DNA of 64,000 nucleotides from Escherichia coli (GCF_045037415.1 NZ_CP173438.1), one strand, 5' to 3'; positions 3,014 through 3,213 are shown, counted from the first letter of the stretch. Notes: generated by a model not told the origin, from the sequence alone. Numbers and translations are program-made.

Positions 3014-3213
3014 CCCAGGCTTCCTTGTTTTTTTGATCGCTTTTTTGGCTTAAAATTTCAATATACGAAACTTGATTTCAAATATATCGATCACTTTTTA
3101 ACAAAGCAATCTGATTGATGAATTTCAAAAAACTTAAAAATCAAGTGGTTATAAATTATCTGTCGAGATCGTGAACTACGGCACACTTTGCGCTACCATC
3201 AGGACGCGACAAA

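Follow-up and report, generated by a model that had tools for sequence, protein, structure and literature searches.

What the short repeated words in the control region between yiaK and yiaJ of Escherichia coli are for, and which of them matter, is the question raised by this locus. The word ATTTCA occupies 3055..3060, 3075..3080 and 3122..3127 on the plus strand of the analyzed window (the whole stretch of 64,000 nucleotides, to which all coordinates refer), and a related word, AAATCAAG, is found at 3138..3145. The initial annotation had placed the three ATTTCA copies exactly, had rightly recognized the region as the yiaJ-yiaK divergent control region, 200 bp long and AT-rich, and had proposed these words as half-sites for the repressor YiaJ or as sites for nucleoid proteins. 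The spacer (3014..3213) has a GC content of 34%, compared with 51% in the window. [quoted passage not shown] Many complete E. coli genomes carry the segment 2700..3500 at 100% identity, with the flanking genes annotated as yiaK and yiaJ. We also observed that the yiaJ ATG at 3214 is not kept outside E. coli, where most genera carry AAG, AAA or a similar codon, and that most genera keep the in-frame ATG at 3229, which has a GGGAG-like Shine-Dalgarno sequence ahead of it; the true start of the YiaJ protein may lie five codons later, at 3229. An Rfam search (E<=1) found no RNA family in 2900..3350.

The extent to which chance would repeat such words was assessed by dinucleotide-preserving shuffles of the 200-bp spacer. 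ATTTCA itself reaches three copies on one strand with P = 0.0017, a value that applies to a word chosen post hoc. Three copies of any hexamer are expected far more often (P = 0.51), and the corresponding values are P = 0.18 for any hexamer made up of three or more different bases and P = 0.022 for any 7-mer of the same kind, ATTTCAA being present three times in the spacer. Because any complex hexamer gives P = 0.18 and any complex 7-mer P = 0.022, repetition alone is only mildly unusual. Across the 64-kb window ATTTCA is not enriched (53 matches vs 49.5 expected). We judge the first and second ATTTCA to be real because they are conserved across genera, not because they are repeated.

The first two ATTTCA copies enclose an inverted word, CGAAAC (3066..3071; reverse complement GTTTCG), which was overlooked in the initial annotation. 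Together the three form a composite YiaJ/PlaR operator of the form ATTTCA-N5-CGAAAY-N3-ATTTCA on the plus strand at 3055..3080, identified from its conservation, its recurrence and a family-level description of such sites (PMC8222616). In the window it reads ATTTCA-ATATA-CGAAAC-TTG-ATTTCA, with boxes alternating in direction. Box 1 (H1), the outer box, is the first ATTTCA (3055..3060, about +13..+18 of yiaK), box 2 (H2) is the inverted middle box, and box 3 (H3) is the second ATTTCA (3075..3080), located between the putative yiaK -10 and +1. Box 2 is common to two dyads, with axes at 3063 (boxes 1 and 2) and 3073 (boxes 2 and 3), a separation of exactly 10 bp; it is also the left half of GAAAYNNNRTTTC, which has a single match in the 64-kb window. 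The three-box site is 134-159 bp upstream of the yiaJ ORF, which encodes the IclR-type regulator. A 'box 0' at 3046..3051, considered as the partner of box 1 in a second dimer site on the tandem 20-bp model of PMC8222616, was rejected, since it reads TGGCTT (ATCTCT elsewhere), shows no similarity to a half-site and has an average conservation of 0.81. Between 3150 and 3213, near the yiaJ promoter, no second PlaR box was found. The strain studied here differs from others at a few operator positions: position 3065 is A (TATACG), in place of the G (TATGCG) of K-12 and nearly all genera, and at 3071..3072 the strain reads CGAAAC-TTG, where most genera and some E. coli carry CGAAAT-CTG. This allele is common, with 1104 genomes at least 99% identical across the spacer.

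A scan with the YiaJ protein, using one genome per species, yielded 80 loci in more than 25 genera of Enterobacterales (Escherichia, Citrobacter, Klebsiella, Raoultella, Enterobacter, Lelliottia, Kosakonia, Pluralibacter, Kluyvera, Buttiauxella, Mangrovibacter, Hafnia, Rahnella, Brenneria, Pectobacterium, Serratia, Yersinia, Edwardsiella and others). The divergent gene is yiaK in about 59 of the 80 loci, and the spacer is 200-213 bp long in most. In a 26-genus alignment, the majority conservation is 0.99, 0.97 and 0.99 for boxes 1, 2 and 3, respectively, and 0.83 for the whole spacer. Within the spacer, conservation peaks in the block 3051..3094, and the first and second ATTTCA stand at the 99.5th percentile of spacer hexamers. 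Box 2 reads CGAAAT in most genera, boxes 1 and 2 read ATTTCAC-TAT-GCGAAAT in most, and in Hafnia they form the perfect palindrome ATTTCAC-TAT-GTGAAAT. The consensus derived from 44 distinct operator sequences is aATTTCAcTATGCGAAATctgATTTCAAA.

It is also evident that this element follows the regulator. The strict pattern TTTCA-N5-YGAAAY-N3-RTTTCA is found in 63 of the 80 YiaJ loci, and in 78 of the 80 when up to two mismatches are allowed. On both strands of the 1.05 Mb examined the strict pattern has 66 matches, 63 of which are located in yiaJ upstream spacers, and the other three, all in Mangrovibacter, precede a second target operon. The same operator is present where the divergent gene is not yiaK but encodes a sugar ABC-transporter ATPase of ~510 aa, as in Kosakonia, Phytobacter, Raoultella ornithinolytica, Serratia, Pectobacterium, Yersinia, Edwardsiella and others (loci L021, L038, L044, L047, L050, L067-L073 and L075-L080). 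Mangrovibacter has one operator between the facing genes yiaJ and yiaK and another three-box copy, TTTCAATATGCGAAATCAAATTTCA, downstream of yiaJ (3564..3588 on the minus strand of locus L057, before an ABC-ATPase ORF at 3630..5204; also in L059 and L060). The operator is absent from two of the 80 loci, one in a Klebsiella metagenome-assembled genome with a spacer shortened to 137 bp (L027) and the other in Intestinirhabdus alba, where yiaJ is without a yiaK neighbor (L055). The conservation of boxes 1 and 3 overlaps that expected for the -10 and start region. As an element that accompanies its regulator and reappears before a second target, the operator is more readily explained as a transcription factor site than as a product of promoter-specific conservation. 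Some long spacers hold additional KdgR/PlaR-type palindromes: GAAACACTGTTTC in Yersinia massiliensis (L069), about 100 nt upstream of the YiaJ match, and GAAATTGAATTTC and GAAATTACATTTC in Pluralibacter and Phytobacter (L048 at -302, L049 at -286). These may be second operators.

The first and second ATTTCA are in fact boxes of an already described YiaJ (PlaR) site on the yiaK promoter. The PlaR-box, ATnTGAAACnnnGTT(T)CAnTT, was derived from gSELEX targets, among which the plaR-yiaK probe showed the strongest PlaR binding, and it overlaps the experimentally identified yiaK promoter (Shimada 2019, PMC6958661). Read from the sequence, boxes 2 and 3 (3063..3083, ATACGAAACTTGATTTCAAAT) match it at 13 of 16 specified positions. 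By ChIP-exo, YiaJ was located at the position of RNA polymerase, with two YiaJ peaks in the spacer, one of which was read as autoregulation, and yiaK-S was strongly derepressed in a yiaJ deletion (Gao et al. 2018, PMC6237786). Two layouts have been described for IclR-family sites, group 1 (GKTYCRYW3-4RYGRAMC) and group 2 (TGRAACAN1-2TGTTYCA), and three-box sites of alternating direction have been found in 32 orthologous groups, with experimental cases known for PcaU, PobR and HmgR (Suvorova and Gelfand 2021, PMC8222616). Boxes 1 and 2 follow the group-1 layout (3055..3071, ATTTCAA-TAT-ACGAAAC) at 12 of 14 specified positions, and boxes 2 and 3 follow the group-2 layout (3066..3080, CGAAACT-T-GATTTCA) at 10 of 14; the group-2 fit, which preserves the GRAAC and TTYCA cores, is weaker than the group-1 fit. 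The supplement of the same study gives precisely these sites for b3574/b3575 (PMC8222616): for b3575, ataTTTGAAATCAagTTTCgCAtaT at -73 (score 5.90), AgTTTCgcATATTGAAATT at -60 (score 5.86) and a weak tandem site at -53 (score 4.40), the 20-bp tandem model giving scores of 3.8-4.4, together with orthologous sites in Shigella, Salmonella, Klebsiella, Citrobacter and Enterobacter. The three-box layout and the exact sites were thus already predicted by Suvorova and Gelfand and are reproduced independently here. The region as a whole has been characterized by EMSA (at the fragment level), gSELEX, ChIP-exo and comparative genomics, so that the description of these bases as not mapped holds for the nucleotide level, at which no PlaR footprint was found in the literature on the spacer, and does not hold for binding data and predictions.

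A consensus scan for sigma-70 promoters (threshold 9/12) called none on either strand of the region. The yiaK hexamers given here count as inferred because of this result: the combination TTGCTT-17-TATATT scores 8/12, which is below the threshold and would be typical of activator-dependent promoters. In the work of Ibanez and colleagues from 2000, the yiaK transcript reportedly starts 60 nt upstream of the ATG, which we take to correspond to about 3073. The candidate -10, TATATT (3081..3086, minus strand), is 7 nt upstream of this reported start and is 99% conserved (AATATA on the plus strand); the weak candidate -35, TTGCTT (3104..3109, minus strand), is separated from it by 17 bp and reads TTGATC in most genera, CAA at 3107..3109 being conserved. 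The operator would then span about -7 to +19 of yiaK, beginning just downstream of the -10. The same authors are said to have found that YiaJ shifts a fragment from -50 to +121, that an essential CRP site 1 is centered at -106, that IHF modulates yiaK-S expression, and that yiaJ is autoregulated and its expression lowered by CRP at site 1. For yiaJ, the near-invariant sequence CTTTGCGCTACCATCA (3186..3201, plus strand, 97% conserved) includes TACCAT at 3194..3199, a candidate -10 whose -35 would overlap the CRP site; inspection by eye revealed no convincing plus-strand yiaJ promoter overlapping the operator. Within the yiaK leader, an element at 3036..3048 (about +25..+37), GCTTTTTT(G/A)(G/T)C, is kept across many genera. 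It bears no likeness to the operator half-site and may be an A-rich leader or the flank of a repressor footprint.

The third ATTTCA (3122..3127, plus strand, about -49..-54 of yiaK) behaves differently from the first two. Its conservation stands at the 47th percentile, and the exact word is present in one of the 26 aligned sequences, other genera carrying TTTTTA, TTTTTT or ATTTTCA at its position. At an offset of +47 from box 3 the word is found in E. coli only, neither E. albertii nor any other aligned genus having it there; within E. coli it is invariant in eight diverse strains, including K-12. Immediately downstream, AATCAAGTGGTTA (3139..3151, plus strand) is a perfect match to the IHF consensus WATCAANNNNTTR, one of five such matches in the window, and is preceded by an A/T-rich tract, TTTCAAAAAACTTAAAA, that includes the third ATTTCA. 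In the 26-genus alignment, the ATCAA of this core is exact in 20 of the 26 sequences and its TT in all 26. We therefore read AAATCAAG, on the strength of its sequence, as the core of a conserved putative IHF site, and the third ATTTCA is probably an E. coli-specific word in the AT-rich arm of that site, not a specific operator box. Accordingly, the assignment of ATTTCA to YiaJ stands for the first and second copies, which are near-invariant and fit both the PlaR-box and the IclR-family consensus, and fails for the third. The expected conservation in orthologous spacers divides in the same way (99% for the first two copies, one exact word in 26 for the third). AAATCAAG had been taken for a degenerate YiaJ half-site, which is not borne out; the proposed alternative of nucleoid proteins applies to this element alone, through IHF, and to none of the others.

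Further upstream, a CRP site, CGTGAACTACGGCACA (3170..3185, plus strand), matches TGTGA-N6-TCACA at eight of ten positions. Matches to the CRP dyad occur across the window at the chance rate (29 vs 25 expected), and this one is located within a near-invariant block, 3166..3201. Its center at 3177.5 is about -104.5 when counted from 3073, in agreement with the reported -106. Both yiaJ and yiaK are CRP targets in RegulonDB, with multiple CRP sites in the spacer (PMC3105977). A second CRP-like 16-mer, TGTCACTTTCATCCCA, with two mismatches, spans the yiaK start codon (3002..3017), where its conservation is confounded by coding sequence; it could be the second CRP site reported for the region. The distances among these elements are nearly constant. 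From box 3 to the IHF core it is exactly 64 nt in 45 of the 59 yiaK-type spacers, and from box 3 to the CRP 16-mer exactly 95 nt in 49 of the 59; the latter distance stays within 94-98 nt in every taxon, also where no IHF core is recognizable. The intervening DNA at 3110..3137 is only about 53% identical in the 26-genus alignment. A spacing fixed to the base pair despite poorly conserved DNA between the sites therefore points to a stereospecific nucleoprotein arrangement, and implies a complex of operator, IHF and CRP in which CRP is about ten helical turns from the start and IHF is between them.

Taken together, we consider it highly probable that the spacer is a compact control region for several factors, with a YiaJ/PlaR three-box operator, an IHF site and a CRP site. 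PlaR binding to the spacer, repression, the effectors and CRP control are taken from the literature; the exact contacts, the stoichiometry, the promoter hexamers and a bending role of IHF are inferred. YiaJ/PlaR would bind ATTTCA(3055)-N5-CGAAAC(3066)-N3-ATTTCA(3075), with the boxes alternating in direction, and, once on the DNA, the repressor (probably as a tetramer) would block RNA polymerase and so silence yiaK-S, to be released by the published ligands L-ascorbate and galacturonate. Upstream, at fixed distances, the IHF site (about -72) and the CRP site (about -104.5) would follow, CRP activating yiaK from a site that overlaps the likely yiaJ promoter. The first and second ATTTCA would thus serve as boxes 1 and 3, the third would be a lineage-specific word beside the IHF core, and AAATCAAG would belong to that core. 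One operator could be placed in the spacer here vs two YiaJ peaks by ChIP-exo; a second YiaJ site, perhaps involving the third E. coli ATTTCA, could exist. A more elaborate version, which we regard as possible and rather doubtful, is that PlaR binds two alternative registers sharing box 2, one with its dyad at about +11 (boxes 1 and 2) and one with its dyad at +1 (boxes 2 and 3), and that the third E. coli ATTTCA, beside the IHF bend, could add a weak contact and so explain the second ChIP-exo peak. The two registers are exactly one helical turn apart, and 'alternative dimerisation' of IclR proteins has been hypothesised by Suvorova and Gelfand (PMC8222616).

Other explanations of the repeated words have to be weighed against this one. 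It is improbable, in our estimate, that all three ATTTCA words and the degenerate AAATCAAG are YiaJ half-sites, the distal copies acting as auxiliary operators for looping or for yiaJ autoregulation. The third copy is missing at the aligned position in E. albertii and every other genus, has no inverted partner bearing the GRAA core, and is out of phase with box 3, from which it is separated by 47 bp or about 4.5 helical turns, and AAATCAAG is better explained as a perfect and conserved IHF core. The fragment that YiaJ reportedly shifted in the work of Ibanez and colleagues in 2000 ends at -50 and so lacks the intact third ATTTCA, which also counts against this reading. On the other side are the invariance of the third copy in the eight E. 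coli strains, the two ChIP-exo peaks with one read as autoregulation (PMC6237786), and a site containing the third ATTTCA that was scored as a weak group-1 candidate at -127 (score 4.02) in E. coli and Shigella (PMC8222616).

The view that the repeats are chance words in an AT-rich promoter, conserved through core-promoter constraints on the -10, the start site and the initially transcribed bases or through generic H-NS/Fis binding, has very little probability in our judgment. It gains something from the shuffles (P = 0.18 for any complex hexamer), from the lack of enrichment in the window and from the position of box 3 next to the -10 hexamer. It does not account for the retention of the three-box layout before an ABC transporter gene, where the downstream -10 context is different, for the second operator copy in Mangrovibacter, for the fit to both IclR-family layouts and to a PlaR-box drawn from other gSELEX targets, or for the binding of PlaR to the spacer in vitro and in vivo (PMC6958661, PMC6237786). 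Slimmer still is the prospect that another regulator of TGAAA/TTTCA sites, such as the paralogous IclR-type KdgR, with UlaR also a candidate, is the main occupant of the boxes and PlaR is secondary. The dyad of boxes 2 and 3 does fit a KdgR-type GAAAY-N3-RTTTC core, and UlaR is said to co-regulate yiaK-S in Klebsiella. The PlaR-box has likewise been likened to the KdgR-box, which is known from pectinolytic enterobacteria, with KdgR co-regulation proposed for some targets (PMC6958661). Against this, the operator accompanies yiaJ in 78 of the 80 loci whatever the neighboring operon, deletion of yiaJ alone derepresses yiaK-S (PMC6237786), and the plaR-yiaK probe is the highest-affinity PlaR target (PMC6958661).

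The reading with a three-box operator, IHF and CRP makes this an ordinary control region that was largely known already, and overall very little is changed by it; what it resolves is which of the repeated words matter. The yiaK-S operon is that of 2,3-diketo-L-gulonate and aerobic ascorbate utilization, and its known YiaJ/PlaR, IHF and CRP inputs can now be assigned to specific bases. Our analysis establishes where the elements lie, how well they are conserved, that the operator accompanies yiaJ and that the spacing is fixed; to the published predictions it adds a broader sample of taxa, the association with the ABC operon and this spacing. The E. coli yiaK promoter also offers a convenient test system for the idea of 'alternative dimerisation' in the IclR family.

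Among known systems, the closest is the PlaR-box itself, which shares the transcription factor, the match to boxes 2 and 3 and the overlap with the yiaK promoter (PMC6958661). It was published as a two-box palindrome from a motif search, and conservation here adds box 1 (3055..3060), the dyad of boxes 1 and 2 being at least as conserved as the published dyad of boxes 2 and 3. The two-box description therefore appears to be incomplete, with a third box that is equally conserved. In the IclR three-box class, one pair of boxes follows group 1 (KTYCRY-W3-RYGRAM, here TTTCAA-TAT-ACGAAA) and the overlapping pair follows group 2 (GRAAC...TTYCA); to judge from its sequence, the YiaJ operator is an instance of this class with no substantive difference. 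It is A/T-rich (TTTCA/TGAAA), whereas the operators of PcaU and PobR are of the GTTCG type, and the requirement for the third box, which was tested for PcaU, is predicted for YiaJ. A distant structural model is provided by the complex of TtgV with its operator (PDB 2XRO), an IclR-family tetramer on DNA and a homolog of YiaJ (E = 2e-16); by analogy, a YiaJ tetramer over several half-sites across the promoter is the likely mode of binding. The TtgV operator is 42 bp long and different in sequence from that of YiaJ. To our knowledge there is no structure of YiaJ on DNA, the effector domain alone having been solved (PDB 1YSQ). Finally, the E. coli ulaG-ulaABCDEF region, which belongs to the paralogous L-ascorbate pathway, is likewise divergent and combines a specific repressor with IHF and activation by CRP (bioRxiv 10.1101/2020.09.08.288738). 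There the DeoR-type UlaR acts through several operators with IHF-aided looping, whereas yiaK has a single IclR-type three-box operator placed on its start site.
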